Of a DNA stretch of 64,000 bases, positions 7,351 through 57,588 are shown in pieces. Under the pieces are notes generated by a model. That model worked only from the letters and a program-made list of their open reading frames with translations, was not told the DNA's origin and made no database searches. The DNA is from a virus (taxonomy: Duplodnaviria; Heunggongvirae; Uroviricota; Caudoviricetes), in the IMG/VR virus record IMGVR_UViG_2565956713_000001, one strand, 5' to 3'. Position 1 is the stretch's first letter; each line of letters begins with the position of its first letter. The position numbers and the translations under genes are program-made.

Positions 7351-7431
7351 GATCTTATCGCCTACCGCTTCGGTTTAAGTTTTTCTTCCAGTTTCTCCAA
7401 CAGGAAAAACGCATAGGATTCAGTGAGCCTT

Positions 7432-10790: not shown

Positions 10791-10859
10791 TTAGGGTACA
10801 TATTTTCGCCTTTAAAAAAAAGAGGTTATTAGATCCAATTGTGTATTTATTAAGCACAC

Positions 10860-10876
10860 AATGCTCTAATAAATTT
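10860..10876 (+). promoter_or_regulatory. C1 repressor operator (AATGCTCTAATAAATTT), Op51-like
   Basis: 16/17 match to the asymmetric C1 operator consensus ATTGCTCTAATAAATTT, upstream of the c4-icd-ant module. Confidence 0.7.
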
Positions 10877-11059
10877 GTATTTTTAAGTCGCGAATGCTAT
10901 CTTTTCGCATCATATTGACCTTTTAATCGTTCAGGCTTATAGTTCCGCCGTCGTAGCAAATTCTGCGACCGGGTTTAGCAGCCTGAATGATTGTGCGGAC
11001 AGCCGCAGATATCCGATATTGCGGTATTTTTGTGTCCGTAAAACCGCGTTACGCCCAAA

Positions 11060-11140
11060 TTATGGTGGGGCGTGATGGGGAGGCTTCGGCCTGCTGGTTT
11101 CACAATCGCCAGTCTGCTAACCCCGTCACGTCCTGCCACC
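11060..11140 (+). ncRNA. c4-like antisense repressor RNA (approximate boundaries)
   Basis: ORF-free leader between operator and icd. Short elements (CACAATC, CTGCTAA) are complementary to GTTTAGCAGC / TGATTGTG, which occur twice, the second copy overlapping the icd ribosome-binding site. Confidence 0.3.
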
Positions 11141-11190
11141 TGTTTAGCAGCGGGTAGCAGGTTGTTAAACCTGATTGTGAGGCCGTAACT

Positions 11191-11412
11191 ATGGTTAATG
11201 CCAATCCTTGCGCACGCCCAGAATTCATCTGGCGTTTCTATTCCTGTAAAAAACACCACTATCACTTCGTTATCGCAGCAACTGAAGACGAAGCACGCTC
11301 TCAATTGCCTGATGGCCCCTGCATTTTTACTGCCCGTTTTTCAACTAACTCGCGCAATTCACTTAGTTACTGGAGCCTCCCCTTCTCTGCCGACGTTCAG
11401 GGGGGTTTATGA
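11191..11412 (+). CDS. icd: Icd-like protein (73 aa)
   Basis: 73-aa ORF with GAGG ribosome-binding site; stop overlaps the ant start (ATGA); paralog of the 73-aa ORF at 62488. Confidence 0.6.
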   Translation: MVNANPCARPEFIWRFYSCKKHHYHFVIAATEDEARSQLPDGPCIFTARFSTNSRNSLSYWSLPFSADVQGGL

Positions 11413-12452
11413 AAAAACCTCTCGTCACCCGTAATGACATAGCCGAAGCGATCGCCCTGCATACTGCCTGTATACCGACACGGGAGATCCCCGGCGCAAT
11501 TGCCAACTATTTCATGATAACCAGGCGTTTTTATACCCGAACAGATAAGGCTGTGATCAACAGGCTACTGATAGCCGAGATCAGGGATTATTTGATTGAA
11601 CAAGGACGTCTACGTTACGCAACGGTGGCAGCAGAAATGAGAAAGGAGGCACATAGAATGACCAGTAATAATTTGAATGTTAAAAAACCAGCACCTGTTG
11701 CTTCAGCAACGCCAGCACCAGCCGTGAATGTCATCCCCACCACCGGAGACACAATCGACAGCCTGACACTGTTAAAGATGGTCAATGAAGCGCGTAAGTT
11801 ATGTGGGGAACCAGAGGTTCGGAACAACAAATTCATCGAAAAAATACTCGACGAATTAGAAGGTGAGGACGGTTACACAAAAAGTGCAACCGTGCCGCCA
11901 GGTGGCGGTACGCCTATGGTTGTCATAACCATGACCTACAAACAAGCCCTGCGAGTCGCCGCGCGCGAGTCAAAAGCGGTCCGCCGTTCGCTGATCGACA
12001 AACTGGAAGAATTACAGCAGGCAAACTCCCCTACCCCATCGATCCCCCAAACATTACCAGAAGCCCTACGCCTGGCTGCCGAGTTGGCAGAACAGAAAAT
12101 GCATCTGGAACAACAGCTGGTGGCCGCAGCACCTAAAGTCGATTTTGCCGACCGGGTATCAGTGGCTAAAGGGATCCTGATTGGGAATTTTGCAAAGGTC
12201 GTTGGACTTAAGCAAAACGCCCTTTTCTCATGGTTGCGCCAGAACGGCATTCTCATGGCTTTTGGTGCGCGCAAAAACGTACCGCGCCAGCAGTACATTA
12301 ACGCCGGGTATTTCACGGTGAAAGAAGTGGTGCTGGATGATGAAAATGGCTATCAGATACGGCTGACGCCACAATTAACGGGTAAAGGCCAGCAGTGGTT
12401 AACTCGCAAGCTACTTGATGCTGGTTTGTTAAAACCAGTAGCAATAGGTTAA
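11409..12452 (+). CDS. ant: antirepressor Ant
   Basis: 347 aa; C-terminal KilAC antirepressor domain (DFADRVSVAKGILIGNFAKVVGL...GKGQQWL). Confidence 0.7.
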   Translation: MKKPLVTRNDIAEAIALHTACIPTREIPGAIANYFMITRRFYTRTDKAVINRLLIAEIRDYLIEQGRLRYATVAAEMRKEAHRMTSNNLNVKKPAPVASATPAPAVNVIPTTGDTIDSLTLLKMVNEARKLCGEPEVRNNKFIEKILDELEGEDGYTKSATVPPGGGTPMVVITMTYKQALRVAARESKAVRRSLIDKLEELQQANSPTPSIPQTLPEALRLAAELAEQKMHLEQQLVAAAPKVDFADRVSVAKGILIGNFAKVVGLKQNALFSWLRQNGILMAFGARKNVPRQQYINAGYFTVKEVVLDDENGYQIRLTPQLTGKGQQWLTRKLLDAGLLKPVAIG

Positions 12453-12464
12453 CAAAAGAAAAAA

Positions 12465-12490
12465 ACCTGCCAGCAAACTGGCAGGTTTCT
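12465..12490 (+). terminator. intrinsic terminator after ant
   Basis: Hairpin CCTGCCAGCAAACTGGCAGG followed by TTTCT. Confidence 0.55.
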
Positions 12491-12616: not shown

Positions 12617-13417
12617 ATGCAACAAACATTCAATGCGGATATGAATATATCAAACCTTCATCAAAATGTCGATCCTTCAACCACTCTGCCCGTTATTTGT
12701 GGTGTTGAAATTACGACCGACCGCGCTGGCCGTTACAACCTTAATGCTCTACACAGAGCGAGCGGACTCGGTGCCCATAAAGCGCCAGCTCAATGGCTAA
12801 GAACGCTGTCAGCCAAACAGCTCATCGAAGAGCTTGAAAAAGAAACTATGCAGAATTGCATAGTTTCGTTCGAAGGCCGTGGCGGCGGCACTTTTGCCCA
12901 TGAATTGCTCGCAGTGGAGTACGCAGGCTGGATTTCTCCCGCGTTTCGGCTGAAGGTAAACCAGACATTTATCGACTATCGAGCCGGAAGATTACAACCT
13001 GCTATTCCGAAGAGCCTCCCAGAAGCTCTCCGTTTGGCTGCTGACCTGGCAGAGCAAAAGCAACGGCTGGAGCAAAAAATGCTGATGGATGCACCTAAAG
13101 TCGAATTCGCCGAACGCGTTGCTACCGCCAGCGGGGTTCTAATCGGCAACTATGCCAAAGTGCTCGGCCTGGGCCAAAACTATCTCTTCACCTGGTTGCG
13201 TGATAACGGAATTCTGATCGCAACCGGTGAACGCAGGAACGTCCCCAAACAAGAATACATATCCCGTGGGTATTTCACCCTTAAAGAAACCGTGATCGAT
13301 ACAAGCAATGGAAGCAGGATTTCTTTCACGACTCGTATAACCGGCAAAGGTCAGCAGTGGCTGATGAAGCGATTGCTTGATGCTGGTGTGCTGGTACCTG
13401 TCGCGGCAACGCGCTAA
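12617..13417 (+). CDS. kilA: KilA (KilA-N domain plus KilAC domain)
   Basis: 266 aa, the length of P1 KilA; C-terminus homologous to both Ant proteins; directly upstream of repL. Confidence 0.75.
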   Translation: MQQTFNADMNISNLHQNVDPSTTLPVICGVEITTDRAGRYNLNALHRASGLGAHKAPAQWLRTLSAKQLIEELEKETMQNCIVSFEGRGGGTFAHELLAVEYAGWISPAFRLKVNQTFIDYRAGRLQPAIPKSLPEALRLAADLAEQKQRLEQKMLMDAPKVEFAERVATASGVLIGNYAKVLGLGQNYLFTWLRDNGILIATGERRNVPKQEYISRGYFTLKETVIDTSNGSRISFTTRITGKGQQWLMKRLLDAGVLVPVAATR

Positions 13418-43447: not shown

Positions 43448-44121
43448 TGGCACCCACAATTTATCACCGTATCGACGGTACCAAATACAGGAATGTCTGG
43501 GTTGTTGGTGATCTGCATGGTTGCTACACCAGACTGATGTCCGAACTCCATCGTGTGGATTTTGACCCGGCGCAGGATTTACTGATATCGGTCGGCGACC
43601 TTATCGATCGCGGTACTGAAAATGTCGAATGTCTGGAACTATTGCAGATGCCCTGGTTCAGGGCAGTGATGGGGAACCATGAGCGGCTGATGATTGATGC
43701 GTTAAGTCCAGATGGCAACGTGAATAACTGGCTAATGAATGGCGGACAATGGTTCTTCATGCTGGACACTGATCAGGAAATATTAGCCTGGACGCTGGTG
43801 GAGCTGGTAAAGCGTCTGCCCTATATCATTGAGTTGAACACCGGGCAAGAAACTATCGTTATAGCCCATGCCGACTATCCGGATAATGAATACCAATTCG
43901 GTAAGGAGGTACCGCTTTTCAACGTTGTCTGGGCGCGCGAGCGTATCAGTGATTCGATGGATGATATTGGTGGCGAAATTTCGGGCGCAGATCGTTTTAT
44001 CTTTGGTCACACTCCGGTGAAAAGCCCGAAGACATTCTGGAATCAGCAGTATATCGACACTGGTGCCGTATTTTGCGGAAACCTGACATTGATGAAAGTG
44101 AAAGGTGATGGTGCAGCATGA
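43429..44121 (+). CDS. Ser/Thr protein phosphatase (lambda-PP-type metallophosphatase)
   Basis: GDLHGC, GDLIDRG and GNHE metallophosphoesterase motifs; 230 aa. Confidence 0.8.
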
Positions 44122-44819
44122 AGATTGCTTTAGTTCTTCGCTCTGGTGGTGACTATAACGCTTCCGATGTGCAGTGGCTGGTTAATCAACTGCCAAAAGA
44201 CTATGAAATTATTTGCCTGACAGACCTGAAGTGTTTACATGTACCTGGCGTCAAAGTTATCCCATTGATCAACCAGTGGCAAAAGTGCCGTGGCTGGTGG
44301 GCGAAAATCGAGTTGTTCCGACCGGATATAACCGATGATCTGTTCTATCTGGATTTGGACACGGTTATTGCCGGTGATATACGCCCAATCCTAGAGCATC
44401 CACCAACCAGCTTCACCATGCTTAGGGATTTTTACCATCCACAATATCGTGGCAGCGGTGCCCTGTGGATACCAAATAGTGTTAAAGCGCATATCTGGAG
44501 TTCATTCTGGCAAGATCCGGAAGGTTGGATTTCTCGTTGTGTCACTACTGAGTGCTGGGGTGACCAGGGGTTCTTACGAAAGGTTATGGGCGATGATACA
44601 CCAGCATTTCAGGATCTGTATCCAGGATGGTTTGTAAGTTACAAGGCCGATGTTGTGGAACCTGGTTCAAAATATGCGAGCGCGCGTTACTCCAGGGGGA
44701 ATGGGGCATTACCAAAAGACTGCCGAATAATCTTTTTCCACGGCAAACCGCGACCTCGCGAAGTGTCAGAGGATTGGCTTCCCCTTATCAGCTCATTTTT
44801 TGAGCGAGAATCAGAATAA
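44118..44819 (+). CDS. glycosyltransferase-like protein (GT-A DxD-type, tentative)
   Basis: 233 aa, translationally coupled to the phosphatase; [12 protein letters not shown] motif. Confidence 0.3.
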
Positions 44820-44820
44820 T

Positions 44821-44886
44821 ATTGCTCTAATAATTCCATATTTTTAAAACGTGATGTACACTCATCACGTTTTTTATTAGAGCAAT
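44821..44886. promoter_or_regulatory. bipartite C1 operator pair flanking a 10-bp perfect palindrome
   Basis: ATTGCTCTAATAATTCC (+) and ATTGCTCTAATAAAAAA (reverse, 44870-44886) flank AAAACGTGATG-tacactc-ATCACGTTTT. Confidence 0.65.
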
Positions 44887-44900
44887 CTACAAGGTGCACT

Positions 44901-45119
44901 ATGTGGCCATTCCGACGGAAATATCACTACTGGCTGATCGCCTTTGTTACGCCGACCGGCGGTATCAGGCATGTCATCACCAGGTATCGCAACAAGAGAC
45001 TCACCTTAGCCAGAATTTTACAGGCTGCCATAGGTGAGGGACTGGATACAAATTGCGTAGTCCTTCCTCCTTCATACTTAGGAAAAATGACCGAAGCACA
45101 AGCTAATACGGAACTTTGA
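44901..45119 (+). CDS. hypothetical small protein (C1-controlled operon)
   Basis: 72-aa ORF just downstream of the bipartite operator. Confidence 0.3.
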   Translation: MWPFRRKYHYWLIAFVTPTGGIRHVITRYRNKRLTLARILQAAIGEGLDTNCVVLPPSYLGKMTEAQANTEL

Positions 45120-45120
45120 A

Positions 45121-46383
45121 ATGATCACTTCAGCACAAAACCAATCAATCGAAAATGTATCTATCCCTGACGTCCTGAATGCCGGTATCCCGGCCATTAT
45201 CCAGAACATCCGGGCCGCGCAACGCCGCGTTAGTTGTGATGACCTCACAGCGCGTTTTTTTGATAATGCGGTTCAGTCAGCGGAGATGCTTCACGCACAG
45301 CTTATTGATGTTTATAACGCAGAAGCTGATAGCCATAACTCCCTGGTAGATGCAGCTGAAAATATGCAGTTGGATCTCGGTCTGAAGGGTAAAGAAATTG
45401 AAGAGCTTCAGCTACAAATTGAACATTTGAAACGCCAGCAACAGGACGCGATCGACGATGCGACGCATGACGCCAACCAGCGTGCTGATAATGCCGAACG
45501 TATAAGCATTGAGCTGGAAACAAAACTCAATGAAATGACCGCGATGGTTGAACTGCGGAACTCACAGATTTCAACGCTAAAATCTCAATATAAAGAGATC
45601 ATGAAACTTGATCCTTTTAACCTTGAGAAACGCTATAACAAAGCTAAAAGCGAGCGACAGGAACTGCGTAAGCAGGTCGCCGACCTTAACCAACAGCTCA
45701 AAAAAACTATTAAAGATGCAAGCGAAGCGCGCGTGGCATTTGCTAATAAAAAAGCAGAGGTTACCGCGCTGGTTAATGAGAATGCCAAATTTGCGACGCT
45801 CAAGAAGGAAATGTATGGCATTACTGAGCGCCGTTTCCCTGCAAGCAAACTTCATCCGACGTTAGGGCAAATCTCCTTCTTCCCGCGCCTCCTGGCTTAT
45901 GGGATCTCATCGCCTAAAGAGTTCAATAACGAGCGTCCTTATATCGTTTCTAAGCTGGACTTTGCTTATCAGTTCTGCTGCGACATGGGCTATGCCATTG
46001 ATATCCGGATCAACGAATGGTTGATGCCAAACTTCCAGCCGTTGGCCATTTTCCGCGAGTTCCAGCCGGAAGGTTGGGTAGAGTTCTTCCATGAATTGAT
46101 CTGTAAAGAGATGGAAAGCCGCCGCCCGGAACTGGTCCGTCGAGTTGAGTGGGCGCAAGAGGTTATGTTGGCAGAGGCAGAGCTGCCGTTCGAACCGGAA
46201 TTTATTGATGATCTGGCAGCTAAAGGGCTGCATACCCTGTTTGATGTGGTTACCCGCCGTCATGAGCAGTTGGTTGTCGAATTGGGTTTAGAGGAAACAG
46301 CGGCAAGAAGACTTCTCGATGTTTGCTATGCACGTAGCGATGCATGGGAAAAAGAGAACGGCGGCACTATTTACGTTCGCTGA
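45121..46383 (+). CDS. coiled-coil protein of unknown function
   Basis: 420 aa with clean start; ~230-aa N-terminal coiled coil and a globular C-terminal domain. Confidence 0.4.
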   Translation: MITSAQNQSIENVSIPDVLNAGIPAIIQNIRAAQRRVSCDDLTARFFDNAVQSAEMLHAQLIDVYNAEADSHNSLVDAAENMQLDLGLKGKEIEELQLQIEHLKRQQQDAIDDATHDANQRADNAERISIELETKLNEMTAMVELRNSQISTLKSQYKEIMKLDPFNLEKRYNKAKSERQELRKQVADLNQQLKKTIKDASEARVAFANKKAEVTALVNENAKFATLKKEMYGITERRFPASKLHPTLGQISFFPRLLAYGISSPKEFNNERPYIVSKLDFAYQFCCDMGYAIDIRINEWLMPNFQPLAIFREFQPEGWVEFFHELICKEMESRRPELVRRVEWAQEVMLAEAELPFEPEFIDDLAAKGLHTLFDVVTRRHEQLVVELGLEETAARRLLDVCYARSDAWEKENGGTIYVR

Positions 46384-46456
46384 TAGTTACAGTGTCACTT
46401 TTAATGCTGGTGGAGTGCGTCCCACCAGCATTTTTTTCGTCCAATGAGGAGGGCAT

Positions 46457-46963
46457 TTGAGTATTTTCAATAAACACGCACACCAGGAACGTCCGTATAT
46501 CGTCATAGTAGATATTGATGGGACGATATCGGAGGCAACGGAAGACAGACTGCATTTGCTTCCGCCACCAGGTAAAGGTGCATTAACAAAGGACTGGAAC
46601 GAGTTTAATCTCGCCTGTGACACCGATACTCCCATCACTCCAGTTATTGATATGGTGCGCCAGTTATTTAACGTTTACACGGTCTGGTTTGTAACCGGGC
46701 GCTGTGAGATCGCAAGGGATAAAACACGAGCTTGGCTGCGGAAGTACGTAACAAACGGGGCTGAGCCTTTGCTATCTATGCGTCCTGCCACCGATGACAG
46801 AAATGACGGCCCAGCAAAGATTGATCTCCTGAAGAAAATTGGTCTAAATAAAATTGCGTTCGCGCTGGAAGATAAGATTGAAGTGGCGCGTGTTTTCAGG
46901 AGTCACGGCGTACTTACGTTAATGGTCAGGGAGTATGAAAACGCGCTTCTCCATCAACAATAA
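46457..46963 (+). CDS. HAD-superfamily phosphatase-like protein
   Basis: 168 aa; N-terminal DIDGT motif. Confidence 0.45.
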   Translation: MSIFNKHAHQERPYIVIVDIDGTISEATEDRLHLLPPPGKGALTKDWNEFNLACDTDTPITPVIDMVRQLFNVYTVWFVTGRCEIARDKTRAWLRKYVTNGAEPLLSMRPATDDRNDGPAKIDLLKKIGLNKIAFALEDKIEVARVFRSHGVLTLMVREYENALLHQQ

Positions 46964-46979
46964 TTGCTCTAATAAATCT
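46963..46979 (+). promoter_or_regulatory. C1 repressor operator (ATTGCTCTAATAAATCT)
   Basis: 16/17 consensus match overlapping the stop codon of the HAD-like gene; followed by TTTTTAAAAC. Confidence 0.7.
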
Positions 46980-47157
46980 TGATTTTTAAAACAGAGAAAG
47001 TGAAAATAAAAACATGCCGTAAGGCGCGGCATGTATCCAATCAATCACAGGAGCTGAAAATATGAACACGGCATTCAAAATCATTATGGCCGCGATCTAT
47101 TTCTGGCTGTTCTCTATCACTTTTGGCGGCATCGTCGCGCATGGGTAAGGGGGATGC

Positions 47158-47883
47158 ATGAAAGGCGAAGTGAAAGAGCGCGGCATGATTTTCAACGATG
47201 AGATGGTCCGAGCCATCCTCGAAGGAAGGAAAACGCAGACGCGGCGGATAATGAAAAATCAGCCTGCGGAAGTTGGTCCAGAAGCACCAGTGATGGTTAG
47301 GGAAATTGGTGCAGGTTTTCAGTGGTACGGGGCTGATGGTGTAAGCAGTGTTTTCAATTGCCCCTTTGGTATCGTCGGCGATCGAATTTGGGTTCGTGAA
47401 ACATGGGCGATATTAGGCAATGAAGATGGTTGCAGTGTGGACTGGAACGACAACCTTTGTCGTGGCGATGAGAAGAACGCAGCAAGGATTTATCGGGCCA
47501 GTTGTGAGCAAAAGCCTGGTGATTACGGTTTATGGTCGATACCCGATGATGCCGACTGGAAACCTCACACTGTGAATGAAAAGTTTGATGGTGGGTGGCG
47601 TCCATCAATTCACATGCCGCGATGGGCATCACGCATCCTGTTGGAAATTACCAACGTGCGCGTTGAGCGGTTGAACGATATCAGCGAATGCGATGCAAGG
47701 GATGAGGGCGTTCCGCCTGCTGGAAGTTTGCTTCCTGATCACCCGGGAACATTCCTTACTCCCAAGGGGGATTTCGCAATGGCCAAGGTTGCGTTCCAGC
47801 GCCTGTGGGAATCCATCTACGGCGAAGAAAGCTGGAGTGCTAATCCCTGGGTTTGGGTAATCGAGTTTGAGCGTATTCAGTAG
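47158..47883 (+). CDS. ASCH-like domain protein (tentative)
   Basis: 241 aa; N-terminal MVRAILEGRKTQTRR resembles the ASCH motif. Confidence 0.35.
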   Translation: MKGEVKERGMIFNDEMVRAILEGRKTQTRRIMKNQPAEVGPEAPVMVREIGAGFQWYGADGVSSVFNCPFGIVGDRIWVRETWAILGNEDGCSVDWNDNLCRGDEKNAARIYRASCEQKPGDYGLWSIPDDADWKPHTVNEKFDGGWRPSIHMPRWASRILLEITNVRVERLNDISECDARDEGVPPAGSLLPDHPGTFLTPKGDFAMAKVAFQRLWESIYGEESWSANPWVWVIEFERIQ

Positions 47884-47892
47884 GGCGAGCGT

Positions 47893-48114
47893 ATGCAATC
47901 AGTTATTTGTGAGGAAGTCGGCCTGAATAAAGCATCCCCAGCAGAGTTAAGAGCAAGTCTCGAAATGGCGCATAGCCTTGCTCAAATTGGTGTCAGGTTT
48001 GTACCAATTCCAGTTGAAACAGATGAAGAATTTCACAGGTTAGCGGCATCGGCAGCACAAAAGCTGGAAATCATGGCAGCGAAAGTAGAGAAAGCTGAAG
48101 GAGCGACAAAATGA
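47893..48114 (+). CDS. hypothetical small protein
   Basis: 73-aa ORF, tightly packed with neighbours. Confidence 0.3.
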   Translation: MQSVICEEVGLNKASPAELRASLEMAHSLAQIGVRFVPIPVETDEEFHRLAASAAQKLEIMAAKVEKAEGATK

Positions 48115-48326
48115 GCAAGCCAACCGACGAAGAAATAGTTCGGGTGTTGGAAGAACACGGGCGCTGTATGACTTACGTCGTGACCAACTGGCTTAGGGAT
48201 AAATATCGCACACTCAAAACGGCATACGTTTTGCGTCGTCTAAAGAAACTGGAGTTCGACGGGAAAGTAAAGCGCGTTAACAGTTCTTATATAAGACAAA
48301 TTTGCTGGGAGGCATCCAGTGAGTAA
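48111..48326 (+). CDS. hypothetical small protein
   Basis: 71-aa ORF overlapping the previous stop. Confidence 0.3.
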   Translation: MSKPTDEEIVRVLEEHGRCMTYVVTNWLRDKYRTLKTAYVLRRLKKLEFDGKVKRVNSSYIRQICWEASSE

Positions 48327-48963
48327 CCGTTTTTACATGATGTGCTTGCGTGAAACTGTGGGTAATAACGCCTCATTCCATTGCCATAACGGCAATGGTT
48401 ACAGTTCTGATATCGATCGCGCTCATGTTTACACGCAGGAAGAAGCCCAAAAAGCCTGGAATTGTGGTCGAGATATCGATCAGCCTGTTTGCGCTGATAG
48501 CGTGGATGCAATGGCTGTGTGGCACGTTGATTGCCAGTACATCCCTACAGAAAGCCTGATTGAGTCAGATTGCACTGCGTATGTGGCCTACAAAAAAGGT
48601 AGCTGGAACGGCAACGATGTTTACTGGCTTCAACACGGTGGATTGCCAACAGATGACTTCAGTAAAGCGACCATCTTTAGCGTCGCCAACAAAAACGAAC
48701 CAGGAATAGTTTGGTTGCCATTTTCCATTGCTGATGCAGCAAAGCGTCGGACGTTCAATATCAATAACTTTAACCGCAGAACAATGGTTCAGGGCGCAGG
48801 TTTGGTCATGCCTGACTGGTTGGAAGAGCAGAACAGAAGAAAGAAGTCGCGAAGCGGGAAGGTGCGTTGGAATTGTCCGCATTGCGGAAAAATAACCTGG
48901 CAGTACAGCCCATATGATTTTGAAGGCTGTAGTGATTACAACTGTGAAGGATGGCGAGAATGA
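48319..48963 (+). CDS. Cys-rich hypothetical protein
   Basis: 214 aa; C-terminal CPHCG...C..YNCEGW cluster. Confidence 0.35.
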   Translation: MSNRFYMMCLRETVGNNASFHCHNGNGYSSDIDRAHVYTQEEAQKAWNCGRDIDQPVCADSVDAMAVWHVDCQYIPTESLIESDCTAYVAYKKGSWNGNDVYWLQHGGLPTDDFSKATIFSVANKNEPGIVWLPFSIADAAKRRTFNINNFNRRTMVQGAGLVMPDWLEEQNRRKKSRSGKVRWNCPHCGKITWQYSPYDFEGCSDYNCEGWRE

Positions 48964-49658
48964 CAATTAACTATCAGGTACTGCGTGAGGCGGCAGAAAA
49001 GGCAACACCAGACGAATGGGTCGCATTTATTTCGACGGATACTGGTACTTATGCGGTGCACACGCCCGGTGATGAACGATGTGAAGACGTTATCAAATGG
49101 ACCGGCTTTGATGGACAGAAAAATGCAGAGAACAACGCTCGTCATGTTGCCGCGTTCAACCCAAAGGTTGCACTGGAGCTGCTTGGTGAAATTAAGTGCC
49201 TGGAGGACACAAAAATTGATGCTATGTGTCGAATTGCAGAGCTTGAGACTAATCTCGCGGCGCTGGTGGCAGAGAACGCCGGGCTGAAACACGCAATGGC
49301 CGTAACTCTTGAGCATGTGTCGGTCACGGATGCAGGGCAGACCGGAGTTGCTGCAATGATTATCAACGATGCCCTGCACCACAGCGAAACTCCAGCTACC
49401 GATGCTTTTCTGGCTGAAATTCGTGCGGAAGCACGCAACGAGGGGATTAACTATACCGCCAGCCGTCTTGCTGCTGCGTTCAATCACGGATTTATCAATA
49501 AGTCTTTGCGTGAAGTTTTCGACGTTACACGCATGATTTTGTCAGCGAAAGAAGAGTTGGCTAATGAAGCGCATCCGATTGATGGCCTGTCTGGTGAATA
49601 TGCGGAGAAATCCCTTGAAGAATGGGCGGAACAGATTCGCAAAGGAAGCAGCCAGTGA
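48951..49658 (+). CDS. Ea22-like protein
   Basis: 235 aa; N-terminal INYQVLREAAEKATP and a coiled coil; paralogous to 49942 and 50652. Confidence 0.45.
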   Translation: MARMTINYQVLREAAEKATPDEWVAFISTDTGTYAVHTPGDERCEDVIKWTGFDGQKNAENNARHVAAFNPKVALELLGEIKCLEDTKIDAMCRIAELETNLAALVAENAGLKHAMAVTLEHVSVTDAGQTGVAAMIINDALHHSETPATDAFLAEIRAEARNEGINYTASRLAAAFNHGFINKSLREVFDVTRMILSAKEELANEAHPIDGLSGEYAEKSLEEWAEQIRKGSSQ

Positions 49659-49945
49659 ATATCGACACGACAATAACGATCGATACGCTCCTAAATACCG
49701 GTCTGGCACTTCTCGGTTGGCTTTACATCATGTCCCGTACATGGCGATGGCTGGGTTCCATTTTCCTAAAACAGTGGAAAAAACGGCGCAAACAGGAACT
49801 ACGCCAGAAGGCATTAGAAGCGTTCTATGACGCATTTGAGCTTAGCCGCATTGAACCAGGTACAACAGCCAGGATAGCGACAAAAGGCGACCTGATGATA
49901 GTGATGTTCCGACAGGAGAGAGCAGAGAAAGGGGAATCAGCATGA
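49655..49945 (+). CDS. small membrane protein
   Basis: GTG start overlapping the upstream stop; one transmembrane helix. Confidence 0.3.
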   Translation: MNIDTTITIDTLLNTGLALLGWLYIMSRTWRWLGSIFLKQWKKRRKQELRQKALEAFYDAFELSRIEPGTTARIATKGDLMIVMFRQERAEKGESA

Positions 49946-50655
49946 AATTTTCCAAATTTTCTGAGTTGGTGAATCGTATTTTGTCCAACAACCACAGCCA
50001 TCGTCGCGATATGGATGTAACAATCGTTGTTCATTCGCCTGGCAGCATTGGTTCAACACCTTCAGTTGAGGTTCAGTCAATTCACGCTGGTTTTGATTGG
50101 GATTCCGGGAAAGTGCTTATTTTCCCATCACAGCCACTGACCACGCTAACACCAGAACAGATTACTGATATCACTGATAGTGTGCGCAAAGGTCAGTCTT
50201 GGCACGCATATCAGGAATACAAGAAGCATCAAGAGCAGTTGGAAAAATTGTCGATTGAACTGGAGGCCGCAAAACAGCGCATTGCAGAGCTGGATGGTAA
50301 TCGCACGGCGCTGGCAGTGGAGAATGCCTCAATGAAGCTGTTTATCAGGGGCTGTTGCTACGTGTTTGATGGCCAGCAGGATGAAATATCTGATGCGTAT
50401 ATCTGCGCAACAGACGGAGGGATGCCGCAAATTCCAGCCACCGACGCTTTCCTGGCTGAAGTTCGGGCGCAGGGGGTGGATGCTGCTATAGAAGCTGCAA
50501 AAAATCTGGTGGCCCAAGAATATGAGTATAAGGATTTCAAAGCGGCGCAGAGTGATTGCTGTATGCACCCTGGTTCAGACCTGGTAGGGAAGGTTGAAAT
50601 GACTGAGTGGTTAGTTGACTTTGCTGCCCAGCTTCGCAAAGGAGGCAACCAGTGA
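49942..50655 (+). CDS. Ea22-like protein (paralog)
   Basis: 237 aa; shares the coiled-coil core and PATDAFLAEVRA segment with 48951. Confidence 0.4.
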   Translation: MKFSKFSELVNRILSNNHSHRRDMDVTIVVHSPGSIGSTPSVEVQSIHAGFDWDSGKVLIFPSQPLTTLTPEQITDITDSVRKGQSWHAYQEYKKHQEQLEKLSIELEAAKQRIAELDGNRTALAVENASMKLFIRGCCYVFDGQQDEISDAYICATDGGMPQIPATDAFLAEVRAQGVDAAIEAAKNLVAQEYEYKDFKAAQSDCCMHPGSDLVGKVEMTEWLVDFAAQLRKGGNQ

Positions 50656-51140
50656 GCGAAATTAATTACCAGGCACTGCGTGAGGCGGCGGAACGTGCAA
50701 TTCCAGCAATGGAACGCCTGTTAATGTTGCCAGTTGATGATGATTTGTTAAGTGAACAGGAACTTAAAGATTACGGTGTGGATATTGATGCGCTCAACGC
50801 CTTCAAATTTCTGGCCGGACCAGAAACCGTGCTGGCACTACTGGATGAACGGGAAAGAAACCAGCAATACATCAAATCCCGCGACCAGGAGAACGAGGAT
50901 ATTGCGCTAACGGTAGGGAAGTTGCGCGTTGAGCTTGAGGCAGAAAAACAGCGGGCAAAGGATCTGTTTATGGAAAATGCTCGGCTTAAGTCAGGTATAG
51001 CCGGTCTGATACACCTCGGTATTCGATATGCAGATGTTGATGTCATGAAAATTGCTGGAGATGCCCAGCTTTCTACCCCATGCACTGACAGCATCATAAA
51101 CAGCATTGCAACAGGCATTCGCATCAACGGAGGTGAGTAG
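50652..51140 (+). CDS. Ea22-like protein (short paralog)
   Basis: GTG start; N-terminal EINYQALREAAERA. Confidence 0.4.
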   Translation: MSEINYQALREAAERAIPAMERLLMLPVDDDLLSEQELKDYGVDIDALNAFKFLAGPETVLALLDERERNQQYIKSRDQENEDIALTVGKLRVELEAEKQRAKDLFMENARLKSGIAGLIHLGIRYADVDVMKIAGDAQLSTPCTDSIINSIATGIRINGGE

Positions 51141-51312
51141 TGCGTGTGGCATGTATTGGCTTGTTACCGTACCCGACTCGTTTTTGGGCTTCTGCGCTAA
51201 TTGCAAAGCCACAGGTCCTGATGGCTGACAACATCACCCCAGCACCAAAGCGCCGCCATACCGGTATTGCAGCGGCACGACGAGCAGCAAAGAGACGCAG
51301 GAGAGCAAAGCG

Positions 51313-51489
51313 ATGAAAAACCGTAAGGCAAAACGACTTTTTTTACAGCGACCTGTGCGTGTGGTGGAGCTGGTTATTAGCAACCATAAGATAGCGGTAC
51401 TCCATCCATTTGGTCAGGTGGCTTTTGCCGCAAAGCGTAAGCCTACTGCGTCACAGAACAGGCGGAAGAAAGGGTACGCAGTAAGATGA
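51313..51489 (+). CDS. small basic protein (tandem duplicate 1)
   Basis: 58-aa ORF starting MKNRKAK, below the ORF-track cutoff; stop overlaps the next start. Confidence 0.25.
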   Translation: MKNRKAKRLFLQRPVRVVELVISNHKIAVLHPFGQVAFAAKRKPTASQNRRKKGYAVR

Positions 51490-51674
51490 AAAACCGTAAA
51501 GCAAAGATTCTGTTAGTTCGTAGAAACGCTCCTGGCGTCTGGCAGTGGGTGAGACTCAGCAACCGACGGATGGGGTTGATGAAATATTACGGGATGATGG
51601 ATTGTGTTTTTTGCAAAAAGCCCAGCGCGGCGCAAAACCGCTGGAAAAACCACTTGCGCACTAAAGGAGAGTGA
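51486..51674 (+). CDS. small basic protein (tandem duplicate 2)
   Basis: 62-aa ORF also starting MKNRKAK. Confidence 0.3.
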   Translation: MKNRKAKILLVRRNAPGVWQWVRLSNRRMGLMKYYGMMDCVFCKKPSAAQNRWKNHLRTKGE

Positions 51675-51675
51675 T

Positions 51676-51897
51676 ATGGCTAACTCATTACTTGAAACCT
51701 GTAACAACTGGCAGATTCAGAGGGCGGAGATTTTATCTCGAAATCCAGATATGGCAATGACAATTGATAACCTGGATACGCTAATTGAACGAACCGTGCG
51801 TTCTGCAATTGATATCGCACATCGAGTGGATTGGGATTTCAGAGAAGCGGAGCGACTTGCTAAAGAGCAGGCGAAAGCTGCGGGCAAAGGAGAGTGA
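51676..51897 (+). CDS. hypothetical small protein
   Basis: Internal Met with strong AAAGGAGAG ribosome-binding site within ORF 51604..51897. Confidence 0.35.
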   Translation: MANSLLETCNNWQIQRAEILSRNPDMAMTIDNLDTLIERTVRSAIDIAHRVDWDFREAERLAKEQAKAAGKGE

Positions 51898-52118
51898 TGT
51901 GCCAACATTATTCAGAAAAGAATATCCGCGAAGAAGCCGAATAACAGAATTTCTGTTTCTCATTCTGTTTATCGTGTTGATGATACCGATATCCCCGTTA
52001 ATTCTGGTATGGGGAATCGGGAAAATAATTGAGCCAGTTATTGAATTGTATAACGACGTGGTATGGGCGTCGTTCAACACATTGCACAACAAAATCAACC
52101 CATATAAGGAAAGCTGAT

Positions 52119-52355
52119 ATGGCAACTTTGACAAAAGAAGAGCGTTTTACCAAAAAACAAATCGCCGAGGCAAAAATCCTCGATAACAACGGAACCTACT
52201 TTATCAACGGCTCCATCCTTCCTGTTTATATCAATGAAGATGGAGACACTTACCTTATTGAAGAGTACGAAAAAGGCGAGCCGAGCGAACACCTCATTAA
52301 AGATTTGTTCGCGGATGGCGTTCTTGTTGCGGTTAATCCAATCGGATACAACTGA
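52119..52355 (+). CDS. hypothetical small protein
   Basis: Internal Met with AAGGAAA ribosome-binding site within ORF 52029..52355. Confidence 0.35.
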   Translation: MATLTKEERFTKKQIAEAKILDNNGTYFINGSILPVYINEDGDTYLIEEYEKGEPSEHLIKDLFADGVLVAVNPIGYN

Positions 52356-52365
52356 GGCATAATTT

Positions 52366-53046
52366 ATGACCACTTTAACCGACAAAGAACTGATTAAAGA
52401 AATCAAAGAGCGTATCAGCAGCCTGGACGTGCGAGACAATATTGAGCGACGGTCGTATGAAATTGCTCTGGCATCGCTGGAAGCAGAACCAATTGCTTAT
52501 ATTTTCAAACATCCGGCCGGGAAATTATTCTGGGCTTTAACGGATGAAAGCAATAAAGAGCAAGTGGACGTTATTCCTGTTTATGCTGCCGCGCTTGCGT
52601 CGGTTGTGCCGGATAATGCATCAGAGCCTCTTGCTTATGCTTACAAAGAGCTTACGCCTGAGATTATGCGCAACCATTTAGCTGTATTCGAGCGATATGG
52701 AATAGCCCCAAACGATAGCTCTACCACAATTCAGGCACTGCGAATCGCGCTGGATGGCATAGAGCGGAGCGACGCCATGCTTCATGGTGCCAAACCTGTA
52801 AGCCAGACTTACAAGTTGAACAAGCTGTCGGGCAACTATCCGGTAATTCCGGATAGTTGGATAAGCTGTAGTGAGCGAATGCCCCCTCAAGATGATTGGA
52901 TTTTAATTTATTCAAAGCACGGCGAGTATATGGCAGGACAGGTACAAGGGGAATACGTGGAGTTGAGCGACGGCACTTTATCGTGGTTAGGGAACGCCTT
53001 GTTCTGGATGCCGCTACCGGAACCGCCGCAGGAGGTGAATCAATGA
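52366..53046 (+). CDS. DUF551-like prophage protein
   Basis: 226 aa; C-terminal WISCSERMPP...WMPLPEPP; shares GNYP.IPDS motif with ORF 54197. Confidence 0.4.
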   Translation: MTTLTDKELIKEIKERISSLDVRDNIERRSYEIALASLEAEPIAYIFKHPAGKLFWALTDESNKEQVDVIPVYAAALASVVPDNASEPLAYAYKELTPEIMRNHLAVFERYGIAPNDSSTTIQALRIALDGIERSDAMLHGAKPVSQTYKLNKLSGNYPVIPDSWISCSERMPPQDDWILIYSKHGEYMAGQVQGEYVELSDGTLSWLGNALFWMPLPEPPQEVNQ

Positions 53047-53110
53047 GCTGGCCTGAAGCATTCACCACGGTAGGAATTGTGATGGCGGCAGCACTGGGTT
53101 TGTATTCAAT

Positions 53111-53362
53111 TTGTCGCTGGTGGTAACGATGGGAAAAATAACTTTTGTAGTCGAATTTGAGGATGGCAAAGAGCCACCTGTTAGCGCCAATCTTGATGTT
53201 GCTGGTGGCAGGCTTGTTTCGGTTCTATTTGGTGACTACCGAGATGACTTCTTCCAACCAGAAGAAGTTGATGTAGTGCGAGAGGCATTAAACGAGTTAA
53301 GTGTTGATAACGATGATGCTCATGCGGAAATCATCCAAAAAATGGAACTGCTAACTCACTAA
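53111..53362 (+). CDS. hypothetical small protein
   Basis: 83-aa acidic ORF. Confidence 0.3.
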   Translation: MSLVVTMGKITFVVEFEDGKEPPVSANLDVAGGRLVSVLFGDYRDDFFQPEEVDVVREALNELSVDNDDAHAEIIQKMELLTH

Positions 53363-53540
53363 ATTATCAATTATGGTGCTATCACCTACGACACCGAGAG
53401 AAAATTTATAATGTCAAAAGTAAATGTTTTGATTTTTTCAGCAATTGTTGGCTTTGGTTTTACTGCCGGAGTGCAGATTTATATTACGTGGGAAAAAATC
53501 ATCAACTACGCATGGAGTTGTTTTATTAAGTGAGGTAAGT

Positions 53541-53834
53541 ATGTGGAGAGGTAATAGTCATGGCAAAAGCCAGATGATACTTACCGAATATCAGTTTGAC
53601 CATAAAACCAATAAATCACGTTCAGTATATTTGCTTCGGCACAATAGCCGCGTAAGGAATACCGTGCTGGAGCAAAATCTGACTGTTGAAATAGATAATT
53701 ACGGGGGCTTCAAGCCAACAATTTCGCTTGATGATTTTCCTCGTGGTTTAAGCGAAAGAGAAGCAATGCTGAAATTAGCAGAATGGCTACAAAGATTAAG
53801 CATTGCTATTGAAGATAACTGGTCTGAACCTTAA
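53541..53834 (+). CDS. hypothetical protein
   Basis: Internal Met with GAGGT ribosome-binding site within ORF 53445..53834. Confidence 0.3.
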   Translation: MWRGNSHGKSQMILTEYQFDHKTNKSRSVYLLRHNSRVRNTVLEQNLTVEIDNYGGFKPTISLDDFPRGLSEREAMLKLAEWLQRLSIAIEDNWSEP

Positions 53835-53840
53835 ATTTAT

Positions 53841-54215
53841 ATGATGACACTAAAACATTTTCTTGACCGCCCATTATGGGCGGCAGCCGCAGGCTATGAC
53901 TTTAATTATATGGATTGCATGTCTTATACCGCCAATGCATACGACTATTCCTTCAGTCTGCTGCTTAATTCTTTAAGAATATTGCCGCAAACAGAAGTTG
54001 GAGAGCTTCATTTATGGCTATTGGGCTTTATCGCGGCTGGAGTTGGTATTGCTGTATGGCCTTTTATTTTCTGGCTGGTGGCTGTTGTAGTGTGGTTTAA
54101 GTGCAAGACGTACCGGAGAAAGTATTTCTTAGGTGATGGAATGACTGATATTGCCAAAATGAACATTGAAAAATGGACTAAGGAATGTGAAAAGAAATGG
54201 CGCAAAAAGAAATGA
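53841..54215 (+). CDS. membrane protein
   Basis: 124 aa with a long hydrophobic segment. Confidence 0.3.
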   Translation: MMTLKHFLDRPLWAAAAGYDFNYMDCMSYTANAYDYSFSLLLNSLRILPQTEVGELHLWLLGFIAAGVGIAVWPFIFWLVAVVVWFKCKTYRRKYFLGDGMTDIAKMNIEKWTKECEKKWRKKK

Positions 54216-55129
54216 CCAGAATCACTGAAGAGCGTATATCAGAGATTATTTCCCGTATCGAAATGTATGGTCACGGTGCTGGATATACGGCAGATGAAGT
54301 ATTGGCACTTGCCCAAATGGCTTTGGCGGCTTGCAAAGATGATAAAAAAATGAAGTTTATCGACTTGTTAGTGAAGGAACTGCCTAAGTGCGGCGGGTGG
54401 CCTGATGGAATGAGTTATTGTTACCTACCCAGTGTCAATTTAATGGCACCATGCGCGACTTTTGCTTTTGGCTCAGACCACAAAAAAGACACTTTCTTTG
54501 GGCGCAATTTTTGTTGTGAGATTGAGCTTCCAATTGGTGACCTTGATAGCGATGAATACCAGTCAGTTGTCACTCGCGAACAATACGAATCAGCTCTCAT
54601 AGCGTCGCAGAAAGTCGAGTTCAATGGTGATGAACTTGAAAGTAAGACTTACAGGTTGGATTTTGGGCAATGGCTGGAACAGCAACGCGGGAAAATCGAT
54701 GTGGACTGTGGTTGTGTGTCCACTGAAACATTCATGCACTGGCTGCGGGTAGCTTACGAGGCTGGCAACTATCCGGATATTCCGGATAGTTCGGTGCCAG
54801 CACCAGGAAAGGGCGTCACCGGTGAACGTATCCGAATTAAGCCGCATGTTTATCGCGAACTGGTTAACCGTCTCCACGATACAGCGATCAAGTGTGCTGG
54901 CACCCAGCAATTACGAGAAAGAATTAGCCGTGTTTTGGGCGACGTTATTACACCAGATCATCATAAACAAGCCGAGAAAAGTGGCCTGGAAAGGTGTCAC
55001 CTTGAGGCGGCATTAAACATTAAGCCGGGGCATACGCTTGGCATTATTGATGCACTATTGGTTCATAAGATGGCCAGGGCTTTATTGCCGCTGGTGGATG
55101 CTGGCGATACAAGCGAGGGTGAAGTATGA
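54197..55129 (+). CDS. hypothetical protein with GNYPDIPDS motif
   Basis: 310-aa ORF. Confidence 0.35.
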   Translation: MAQKEMTRITEERISEIISRIEMYGHGAGYTADEVLALAQMALAACKDDKKMKFIDLLVKELPKCGGWPDGMSYCYLPSVNLMAPCATFAFGSDHKKDTFFGRNFCCEIELPIGDLDSDEYQSVVTREQYESALIASQKVEFNGDELESKTYRLDFGQWLEQQRGKIDVDCGCVSTETFMHWLRVAYEAGNYPDIPDSSVPAPGKGVTGERIRIKPHVYRELVNRLHDTAIKCAGTQQLRERISRVLGDVITPDHHKQAEKSGLERCHLEAALNIKPGHTLGIIDALLVHKMARALLPLVDAGDTSEGEV

Positions 55130-55488
55130 GAGTTGCAGATCACATCAAACACCTTGAAAGAATTATCGAAAACGGTGAACTCTTAAGAGATCAGATGAGA
55201 CGCACGGCAGAAGTCAGAGAGGCGATAATCCGCAGTCAGGCTGGTAAATTAAAGCAATTATCAGAGATTAACGCGCTATACAAGAACAGACGTAACCGGG
55301 CGGCGCTGCGGCTTCAGAAAGCACGTAATGAAATTAAATTGGTGGAGGCAAAACTGAAAAAACAGATTCAGCGTTACGATCAGCAAGATGCTTTTTATGC
55401 CGCCATCAAGGCGGCTGCTAATGAAATAGGCATCTGGAAGTTGCTGGTGGAGAAAGCAAAGACGAAGTTAAATGCCAACGAAAGCTGA
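55126..55488 (+). CDS. coiled-coil protein
   Basis: 120-aa basic helical ORF overlapping the previous stop. Confidence 0.3.
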   Translation: MRVADHIKHLERIIENGELLRDQMRRTAEVREAIIRSQAGKLKQLSEINALYKNRRNRAALRLQKARNEIKLVEAKLKKQIQRYDQQDAFYAAIKAAANEIGIWKLLVEKAKTKLNANES

Positions 55489-56149
55489 ACTACAGGTACC
55501 CACCAGCACATACAGAAAATGATTGTTTCCACATCAAGGAGATTTTAATGTTTCACTGAACATTAAGTAAGCCAGTGCATAATTCCATTTTTTACTGACC
55601 TTAAAAGCAAAATCAAAACGATGATGAGGATGATCGCCAGAATCTGGCTAATAACAGGCGCATCTAAAAATGCACTCAGGAACTGAAAAAAAGCAGTCAT
55701 TAAGGTGGTTCCTTGTCAAATGTAAAGGAGCACTTGCTCACGTTGACGTAGAAACCCAACCCCTATATAGTTGGATTCGGTGAAAGAAAGTCGTTAACGT
55801 GAGCTTACGGCACATGTTTTCGGAACAACATCAGGGAACGGCTAATTCCTTGATGCGGATGGGGTCTGTAATGCAGACCCTATCTATTAACGTCATGATT
55901 GCATCTCAAATTTTCTCCTTATCTTCATTAATCAAAATTCATTTCATTTGTGAAACATCACAATATTTAGAAAATGGCCCTCTTGCAAGTGCATAACTTT
56001 GTGGATAAATCAGGAAGAAAAAAGTTGATTCTGCGCACGGCAAGGCAGATAAGCTGTGCACAAAAATCAATGGGAAAAGAAAAAAAATTAAAAGTTACTT
56101 TGCTGGTTAAATAATAGTCGTTACGCAATTGTTCTGGATGGGATTTGAT

Positions 56150-56401
56150 ATGCACGATTGGAATATTGCAGCTAAAAGTCAGGAAGAACGGGATAAGGTT
56201 AACGTTGATCTGGCTGCCAGCGGTGTGGCGTACAAAGAGCGATTGAACATACCTGTCATAGCTGAACAGGTAGCCCGCGAGCAACCAGAGAATCTGCGCA
56301 CCTATTTCATGGAACGGTTACGGCACTATCGGCAGTTAAGCCTCCAGTTGCCAAAAGGGAGCGATCCGGTGTATCAGAACGAGGATGCACCAAAAAAATA
56401 A
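56150..56401 (+). CDS. hot: homolog of DNA polymerase III theta subunit (Hot)
   Basis: [36 protein letters not shown] aligns with E. coli HolE as I recall it; start chosen at the Met best matching theta's length. Confidence 0.6.
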
Positions 56402-56486
56402 CGGCAAGATGGGGGAGAAATGTGATTAGCCCCCAGCGTGGCGCGCCTACAAACCCCGCTTTCACAAACTATGCCTTTTCAATGTA

Positions 56487-56914: not shown

Positions 56915-56986
56915 GCTGCAAAGTGCTGGTGCTTTATGCCTGTGAAGTTTATAATTGTGTACACATAACGAGTACACGAGGTGTTT

Positions 56987-57208
56987 ATGCAATCCATTAA
57001 CTTCCGTACCGCGCGTGGCAACCTTTCTGAAGTGCTCAACAATGTTGAAGCCGGGGAAGAGGTTGAAATCACCCGCAGAGGCCGTGAGCCAGCAGTAATT
57101 GTCAGCAAGGCTACTTTCGAAGCCTACAAAAAAGCGGCGCTGGATGCTGAATTTGCATCCCTGTTTGACACCCTGGACTCCACCAACAAGGAACTGGTTA
57201 ACCGATAA
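56987..57208 (+). CDS. phd: antitoxin Phd
   Basis: 73 aa from ATG at 56987 (ORF track begins 2 codons earlier at a GTG); palindromic GTGTACAC operator half-sites upstream; stop overlaps doc start. Confidence 0.9.
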
Positions 57209-57588
57209 TGAGGCATATATCACCGGAAGAACTTATTGCGCTTCATGATGCGAATATAAGCCGCTACGGCGGCCTGCCGGGAATGTCTGATCCGGGTAGG
57301 GCAGAGGCCATTATCGGGAGAGTTCAGGCCAGAGTTGCCTACGAAGAGATCACCGACCTTTTCGAAGTCTCCGCCACCTACCTGGTGGCTACAGCGAGAG
57401 GGCATATATTCAATGATGCCAATAAGCGTACCGCGCTAAACAGTGCGCTGCTATTTCTACGCCGTAACGGGGTGCAGGTATTTGATTCACCTGAACTGGC
57501 AGACCTTACTGTAGGCGCTGCGACTGGCGAGATATCTGTATCTTCTGTCGCCGACACGTTACGTAGATTGTATGGTTCTGCGGAGTAG
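57208..57588 (+). CDS. doc: toxin Doc (Fic-fold kinase)
   Basis: 126 aa immediately after phd, the classic phd-doc operon. Confidence 0.9.

Follow-up and report, generated by a model that had tools for sequence, protein, structure and literature searches.

In P1-like phage-plasmids, the interval from pmgT to humD is the variable 'region 8' of a set of 54 such elements (PMC9603915), and the interval between pap and lxr has been described as the variable RD-5 (PMC6906374). The P7 record names the locus the 'hea' operon, with the operator Op(hea). The 64-kb stretch of DNA analysed here (IMG/VR record IMGVR_UViG_2565956713_000001; hereafter the window) is a P1-like phage-plasmid carrying P1-type phd/doc (56981-57588), humD, hot, pmgS and pap, and its block 47158-55488 is exactly the P1 pmgT–pmgV interval, bounded by pap and hot/humD. 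The block resembles region 8, RD-5 and 'hea' in its locus, its flanking genes, its C1 operator and the kind of replacement genes it carries, among them Ead/Ea22-like ones, but differs in a gene order that is absent from the collections searched. The block is very probably the hypervariable early operon of a P1-like plasmid prophage in its 'full' state, stocked with genes of the lambdoid pool and with its joints at gene borders and at short conserved islands. As a block it is ordinary and changes little, adding a single arrangement to a hot spot already described; what this analysis adds is the reading of P1 pmgT and pmgU as deletion chimeras and a grammar of in-frame linkers, neither of which is mentioned in the published accounts found of region 8 and RD-5.

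Both flanks of the block are those of P1. Window positions 44000-47853 match positions 81331-85183 of the P1 reference (NC_005856) at 98.7% identity, and positions 54754-56404 match 85182-86833 at 97.8% identity (blastn). About 20 tightly packed open reading frames (ORFs) make up the block; all of them lie on the + strand, and stop and start codons overlap. Upstream of them on the + strand lies the C1 repressor operator Op88/OpmgT (46963-46979), a 17-mer, ATTGCTCTAATAAATCT, that matches the annotated P1 operator letter for letter and whose surrounding 65 bp are also identical in the two elements; the predicted P2pmgT/P1pmgT promoter region, which follows 3' of Op88 on the same strand to about 47007, is also identical to P1. 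The identity of the operator suggests that the operon would be transcribed only when C1 is inactive, and because of this its products would have their effect early in the lytic cycle, either on the host or on competitors. Inside the block, promoter-like and terminator-like sites show no excess over shuffle expectation, a scan for tRNA and tmRNA genes found none, and a search against Rfam gave no match at E<=1. The G+C content along the block (0.41-0.50) does not deviate clearly from that of the whole window (about 0.47).

The variability of the locus is extreme, with 59 distinct breakpoint architectures among 79 P1-like viral loci. At least 80% of the full 8.3-kb block is covered by none of the roughly 500 matching phage records and by two of the roughly 1,200 matching plasmid records, the better of which reaches 81%, and the central 4.7 kb (48308-53046) is covered to 93% by the best record. 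A sequence-only reading of the block had described it as mosaic and had listed an ASCH-like protein, three Ea22-like proteins, a DUF551-like protein and two tandem ORFs starting MKNRKAK. These genes are all present on the + strand where it placed them, and the block is indeed mosaic rather than collinear with P1, which it matches only at 47158-47853 and 54754-55488.

The 6.9 kb between these two matches (47854-54753) is missing from the P1 reference, and blastn together with the junction sequences places the change at a point junction with a microhomology of 2 bp or less. Gene integrity and the distribution of interval lengths suggest that P1 carries a deletion, rather than that the window carries an insertion. 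ORF 47158 (47158-47883, + strand; 241 residues) is the complete version of what survives as the 5' 232 codons of P1 pmgT, since P1 PmgT is identical to its residues 1-232 at 231 of 232 positions and then runs out of frame through another gene. In Klebsiella, Citrobacter and further genera, most homologs of ORF 47158 have 213-259 residues, and therefore the 241-residue form of the window is intact. The protein has the ASCH/PUA-like beta-barrel fold; by sequence it has no Pfam or NCBIfam match to ASCH (PF04266), and the best hit of a PDB sequence search has an E value of 0.87. On the other side of the P1 junction, ORF 54197 (54197-55129, + strand) encodes an intact 310-residue modular protein composed of an N-module, a degenerate linker A', a middle module, linker B and a C-module, with a match to phrog_21459 on residues 188-309 only. 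Its C-terminal 111 residues are the 111-residue P1 'PmgU', with 106 of 111 positions identical, and the next protein, PmgV, is identical in sequence in the window and P1. Among 23 IMG/VR P1-like loci with both flanks, the distance from pap to hot ranges from 2263 bp, the P1 state found in two of them, to 9137 bp; at 9166 bp, that of the window is longer than any of these. From these comparisons, 'pmgT' and 'pmgU' of P1 appear to be chimeras that a deletion made from two genes, both of them intact in the window; in P1 the ASCH-fold gene would run out of frame into the middle of the 310-residue gene, of which pmgU would be the 3' remnant. The P1 annotation of pmgT and pmgU would then describe deletion artefacts, and comparisons that use P1 as the yardstick would mis-describe the locus as a 'replacement of pmgT'. 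A literature search on pmgT yielded nothing of relevance.

The genes between the P1-like ends point to lambdoid prophages. With the exo–xis/ea early-left (pL) region of lambdoid phages and ead/eaa of P22, the block shares the families Ead_Ea22, DUF1382, DUF4752 and DUF551, and its DNA is up to 98% identical to an Stx2c prophage; it differs from these regions in belonging to a plasmid prophage, where the P1 C1 repressor would control it, and in having no int/xis or recombination genes adjoining. Four segments of the window (48308-49427, 50429-50950, 51112-51680 and 52461-52837) occur in the same order and at 96.6-98.2% identity in the Stx2c prophage LC645408, in line with the lambdoid gene types recognised by the sequence-only reading. 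In this prophage (locus L402), an Abc2 anti-RecBCD gene (2788-3081), the homologous segments (4001-7589) and an integrase gene (10339-11517) beside the att site follow one another, and the stretch between abc2 and int/att is the lambdoid early-left accessory region. Ea22 genes are reported to be mosaics whose C-terminal domains can be swapped, and DUF551 is described as a 'portable domain' (PMC10834534). A pro-lysogenic role has been reported for Ea22. All these likenesses argue firmly that the genes of the block belong to the pool of small early-left (exo–xis/ea-type) accessory genes of lambdoid prophages. Pieces of window 48308-53046 are found in 3473 of 5426 complete Escherichia coli genomes (64%), at 7183 chromosomal and 1135 plasmid places, and because of this wide presence on chromosomes an exchange with resident prophages appears well founded. 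The acquisition by recombination that the sequence-only reading had suggested thus stands as exchange with such prophages but not as insertion into P1, since the evidence points to a deletion in the P1 reference. The reassortment itself would proceed by homologous recombination between conserved islands of 25-65 bp in co-resident prophages.

Arbiol, Comeau and Krisch in 2010 reportedly described promoter-early stem-loops (PeSLs) in the hyperplastic regions of T4-type phages and proposed that they allow shuffling by homologous recombination. Two linkers of the block, A and B, resemble PeSL cassettes as short conserved stem-loops at module borders of an accessory region, but PeSLs are intergenic and contain a promoter, whereas A and B are translated in frame within ORFs and show no promoter excess, so they do not qualify as PeSLs. 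B also resembles the Rickettsia palindromic elements, which are 100-150 bp long, lie in frame within coding genes and are present in many copies per genome: in both cases, palindromic DNA is translated within proteins and is also found in non-coding DNA. B differs from them in measuring 25 bp and in being single-copy per locus in the contigs examined, and a multi-copy, REP-like behaviour of B was rejected on the same count.

Linker A (AACCTGTAAGCCAGACTTACAAGTT; 52793-52817) lies in frame inside ORF 52366 and encodes PVSQTYKL, part of the linker peptide EPVSQTYKL, and its degenerate counterpart A' lies at about 54635-54660 inside ORF 54197. Palindrome B is present in two copies. Copy 1 (AACTATCCGG-TAATT-CCGGATAGTT; 52834-52858) encodes NYPVIPDS and coincides with a breakpoint in 30 of the 59 architectures, and copy 2 (AACTATCCGG-ATATT-CCGGATAGTT; 54767-54791) can be extended by an extra CTGGCA/TGCCAG stem. 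The motif GNYP.IPDS that the sequence-only reading saw in both ORF 52366 and ORF 54197 is real, and it corresponds to a 28-bp DNA repeat (52831-52858 and 54764-54791) that is 93% identical. With its variants, the linker B peptide is GN[Y/S]PV[T/I]PD[S/G]W.

Breakpoints in the block cluster at gene starts and stops (47147-47152, 47880, 48307, 51485, 51663-51682, 53031-53039 and 54216), and other clusters are intragenic. The commonest of all is at the start codon of ORF 51676, where the cluster 51663-51682 is seen in 37 of 79 loci. A conserved coiled-coil island at 50826-50950 is flanked by clusters in 20 and 33 loci, and a cluster at 54633-54639, in ORF 54197 near A', is seen in 18. The intragenic clusters include the four short conserved islands A, B copy 1, A' and B copy 2, which together make up 2.2% of the block. 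These four linker windows contain 64 of 548 breakpoints against 12.2 expected, in loci that share ancestry; counted as distinct clusters, they contain 5 of 72 against 1.6 expected. In agreement with a role as joints, at least 12 unrelated N-modules, including that of ORF 54197, are fused at linker B to one DUF551 domain in a sample of DUF551 genes gathered without reference to the linker. Hairpin A is present in at least 120 IMG/VR loci, and several N-side and C-side modules are joined there, the Ea22 coiled-coil among them. Taken together, these fusions show that linkers A and B join interchangeable N-terminal, middle and C-terminal modules in frame. The block thereby offers a testable grammar for rebuilding small phage accessory proteins, consisting of an N-module, linker A, a middle module, linker B and a portable C-domain.

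Copy 2 of B is itself a place of change. P1-like relatives show a gain of 9 nt by duplication (NYPDIPDIPDSS) and a loss of 9 nt (NYPDSS) within it. Three deletions of independent origin end at or beside it, one of them being the P1 reference deletion, which ends 13 bp upstream. The palindromic linker B may thus add hairpin-promoted slippage and deletion to homologous reassortment. In locus L341 (IMG/VR 2617270998_000006), an in-frame fusion at ...TPDSW links the N-terminus of Pap with DUF551, which corresponds to a deletion from pap to linker B. In the Stx2c prophage EH1904 (L402 7590-8897), an IS3-family element of 1.3 kb with an rve transposase is inserted exactly at the 5' edge of B inside a DUF551 gene, and a second copy is found 6 kb away. 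The boundary at palindrome B in this prophage was considered as a domain swap and rejected, since it is produced by this insertion.

Several observations weigh against reading the block as a C1-controlled early operon reassorted with prophages through its linkers. C1 control would follow from the identical operator only, and transfer between plasmid and prophages may have run in either direction. Most breakpoints lie at gene boundaries and not at linkers. Because the loci behind the breakpoint counts share ancestry, the p value of 1e-26 for the linker windows is inflated, and the conservative test on clusters gives p=0.02 only. In the unbiased sample of DUF551 genes, the commonest linker B pairs at only 8 of 10 arm positions without any compensatory pattern, a minority of the alleles are perfect, and the Y/S and G/S positions vary independently; because of this incomplete and uncompensated pairing, palindrome B may be no more than a side effect of encoding the linker peptide. 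The idea that the perfect palindrome is kept in DUF551 genes was rejected on these data.

The alternative that survives best is that the block is an island of defence or anti-defence cargo, which would protect the lysogen or disarm host defences in a P1-like infection, and this is possible though on balance unlikely. The block is a recombination hot spot with fast turnover, 59 architectures in 79 loci, and in sister plasmids this site is occupied by genes for a PAPS-reductase-family protein, an adenine methyltransferase, a protein with a dATP/dGTP pyrophosphohydrolase domain and an HNH endonuclease. DUF551 also occurs on MazZ, a reported inhibitor of host restriction (PMC10834534). The sequence-only reading had pointed to the block as the place to look for cargo of this kind, but none of 19 ORFs matches PADLOC at E<=0.01, no informative NCBIfam model is matched among the ORFs, and every PHROG match is of 'unknown function'. 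In addition, the P1 reference is without the 6.9 kb and is yet a fully functional phage. Because the operon lies behind the C1 operator, it should, by analogy with P1, be silent in the lysogen. A defence expressed in the lysogen is therefore unlikely, and a part in anti-defence or in taking over the host would fit better. The site takes cargo, and nothing in the window is assignable to defence or anti-defence.

A second alternative, which we regard as doubtful, is that palindrome B, together with hairpin A, is a functional nucleic-acid element, such as an mRNA processing or stability site with an RNase III-type stem or a factor-binding site, the peptide being secondary. The copies in the block are striking in themselves. 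Both are perfect 10+5+10 palindromes, AACTATCCGG-N5-CCGGATAGTT, where shuffles give 0 expected, and both fold strongly on either strand (z -3.3 to -5.0). The exact 20 nt of B occur in at least 120 IMG/VR loci and at least 120 GTDB genome loci, whereas two shuffled-arm palindromes of the same composition have no match in IMG/VR. About 100 of the 120 genome matches listed fall in genes of the RhuM family, in almost all bacterial phyla and over a range of G+C content from 0.28 to 0.70, in the frame T-I-R-x-F-R-I-V. RhuM-family genes of genome contigs (L123-L242) and viral contigs (L243-L321) have the palindrome, or a compensated variant of it, at the TIRxFRIV codons. RhuM is a predicted toxin of restriction-modification (R-M) islands (PMC3710099).

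In RhuM genes picked by the peptide pattern only, 96.6% of arm positions pair, 7 of the 10 pairs show compensatory changes, and none of 500 shuffles is as good. The variants include ATT/CGA in place of ATC/CGG, and whole-arm swaps that alter the peptide (TCR..RQV and VVR..RTT) are still paired at 10 of 10 positions. Codon use in the hairpin is atypical as well, with CGG at 70% and GTT at 95% against 19% and 27% in the rest of the gene. The linker-B palindrome leads to an unreported, strongly covarying hairpin within RhuM genes across phyla: no report of a RhuM hairpin was found in a literature search, and a text search for the B arms found only unrelated primer pairs. Should the RhuM hairpin prove functional, a previously undescribed conserved element would lie within the gene for a predicted R-M-island toxin. 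Genome matches reading NYPE[F/I]PDS in frame 0 were considered as a separate protein family and rejected, as they arise from reading RhuM TIR[K/N]FRIV on the opposite strand in codon register.

Palindrome B also occurs outside genes. Non-coding DNA of phage contigs with low G+C content contains tandem arrays of hairpins A and B and a third hairpin (GTTCGGAATAACCGAAC), immediately 3' of a DNA methyltransferase gene or between terminators (L007 at about 832-910, L109 at about 2560-2640 and L122 at about 12410-12490; also L110, L114, L035, L028, L566 and L549), and in the variant L522 a compensatory change keeps B paired. The side-by-side position of A and B in such spacers and the compensated L522 favour a functional hairpin, as do the RhuM covariation and codon use, but the perfect form is the minority allele in DUF551 genes, as described above, and Rfam gives no match, ten hairpin-array loci having nothing at gathering score. 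Moreover, no RhuM (PF13310) protein is encoded in the window, where six-frame matches of the TIRxxRIV type are the two B palindromes only, so that the 20-nt palindrome alone is common to the window and RhuM genes.

Hairpins and quasipalindromes promote slippage, deletion and template switching, as known from the work of Ripley, Sinden and Lovett, and quasipalindrome template switching is an established mutational mechanism. The 9-nt gain and loss in B, the deletions ending at its base and the compensatory arm changes in RhuM genes are like the products of these processes, whereas the arms of B are only 10 bp long. Template-switch mutagenesis could also account for the RhuM covariation without selection. 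A still wider proposal is that A and B are hairpin modules acting at the nucleic-acid level, common to phage accessory genes, intergenic arrays and the R-M-associated RhuM family, which would serve as domain-shuffling joints (a prokaryotic analogue of exon shuffling) and/or as sites for a conserved factor, the window copies being functional sites; this is speculative and we consider it improbable. Of all the elements of the block, only the palindrome that it has in common with RhuM genes truly lacks an explanation. Further perfect hairpins of the form AAC-stem-loop-stem-GTT, with arms of 10-11 bp, are seen in the window at 12463-12488, 12842-12867 and 44846-44873, and the whole window contains 32 perfect hairpins with arms of at least 8 bp against about 6 in first-order Markov simulations.

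The paralogs of the block could also have been taken for recent local duplications with ongoing turnover within the element, as the sequence-only reading proposed, given that three Ea22-type and two phrog_1380 genes lie within 3 kb. Ea22-like protein 1 (48951-49658, 235 residues) and Ea22-like protein 3 (50652-51140, 162 residues, with the coiled-coil island 50826-50950) match Ead_Ea22 (PF13935, gathering cut-off 27) at 84.9 bits (E 1e-23) and 113.6 bits (E 1.4e-32), respectively. Ea22-related protein 2 (49942-50655, 237 residues) falls below membership of PF13935 and has no Pfam match; it has a different N-module, shares its C-terminal part with protein 1, and is related through phrog_368 and blastp only (E 5e-8 against ORF 48951). 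All three match phrog_368, with E values of 5e-72, 5e-76 and 2e-51 in gene order. The two ORFs starting MKNRKAK (51313-51489 and 51486-51674) both match phrog_1380 and are 37% identical (E 4e-8). Pairwise identity among the three Ea22-type proteins is 28-31%, and self-BLAST of the block finds repeats of 28-51 bp only, at 76-93% identity and none longer than 51 bp. One of these, a 41-bp repeat between proteins 1 and 2 (49387-49427 and 50429-50469), is a crossover point in the Stx2c phage. In phiV10, the same tandem pair is annotated as the adjacent paralogs p50/p51, with a 75-78% match to the window, and the pair and the gene order also recur in Stx2c phages. Because the proteins are only 28-37% identical, no DNA repeat exceeds 51 bp and phiV10 has the same pair, the Ea22-type and phrog_1380 paralogs are old rather than products of recent duplication. 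Local paralogs are thus present as proposed, but their recent origin and ongoing turnover are contradicted by the data and highly improbable. Just as remote is a role in head morphogenesis, which has the P1 and P7 annotation text ('pmg', putative morphogenetic) in its favour and against it a P1 without 6.9 kb of the block in which two of the three 'pmg' genes would be deletion artefacts, a gene content that differs in nearly every relative, the location of homologs among the early-left accessory genes of a lambdoid prophage, the ASCH fold of ORF 47158 and the lack of any PHROG match in a structural category.

The remaining genes, all on the + strand, complete the early operon. Between PpmgT and the ASCH-fold gene lies a small hydrophobic ORF of 28 residues (MNTAFKIIMAAIYFWLFSITFGGIVAHG; 47062-47148), read from the sequence, which is unannotated in P1 although the DNA is conserved there and which forms the left end of a large deletion of the whole block in locus L421. 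The ASCH-fold gene is followed by a DUF1382 protein of 73 residues (47893-48114; PF07131, E 5.7e-29), a 71-residue protein (48111-48326; phrog_9799, function unknown) and a 214-residue protein with a Cys-rich C-terminus (48319-48963; phrog_2457), with counterparts in P7 (upf87.6) and in the Stx2c prophage that are 97-98% identical in DNA sequence. Ea22-type proteins 1 and 2 are separated by a DUF4752 protein of 96 residues (49655-49945; PF15944, E 2.4e-42), and protein 3 is followed by a basic 58-residue protein (51140-51316; phrog_13831). Downstream of the phrog_1380 pair lie a 73-residue protein (51676-51897; phrog_10585), a 78-residue protein (52119-52355; phrog_8930) and the modular protein of ORF 52366 (52366-53046), which consists of an N-module, linker A, linker B and DUF551 (PF04448) on residues 164-222, the latter at 40.1 bits against a gathering cut-off of 22 (E 6.9e-10), and has several partial PHROG matches. 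Proteins of about 77 residues (53129-53362; phrog_3876), 97 residues (53541-53834; phrog_1258) and 124 residues with hydrophobic segments (53841-54215; phrog_2638) precede the 310-residue modular protein, and the block ends with PmgV (55126-55488, 120 residues; phrog_4403), the P1 PmgV.

Beyond the block, the window lacks the LexA-regulated lxr, which in P1 takes up about 0.7 kb between hot and humD; at 56404-56472 hot joins the upstream region of humD directly. Window 55150-56150, which extends 3' of pmgV through the upfM–upfO equivalents up to hot, is also variable, and about 43% only of the P1-like loci with both flanks match it at 88% identity or more.

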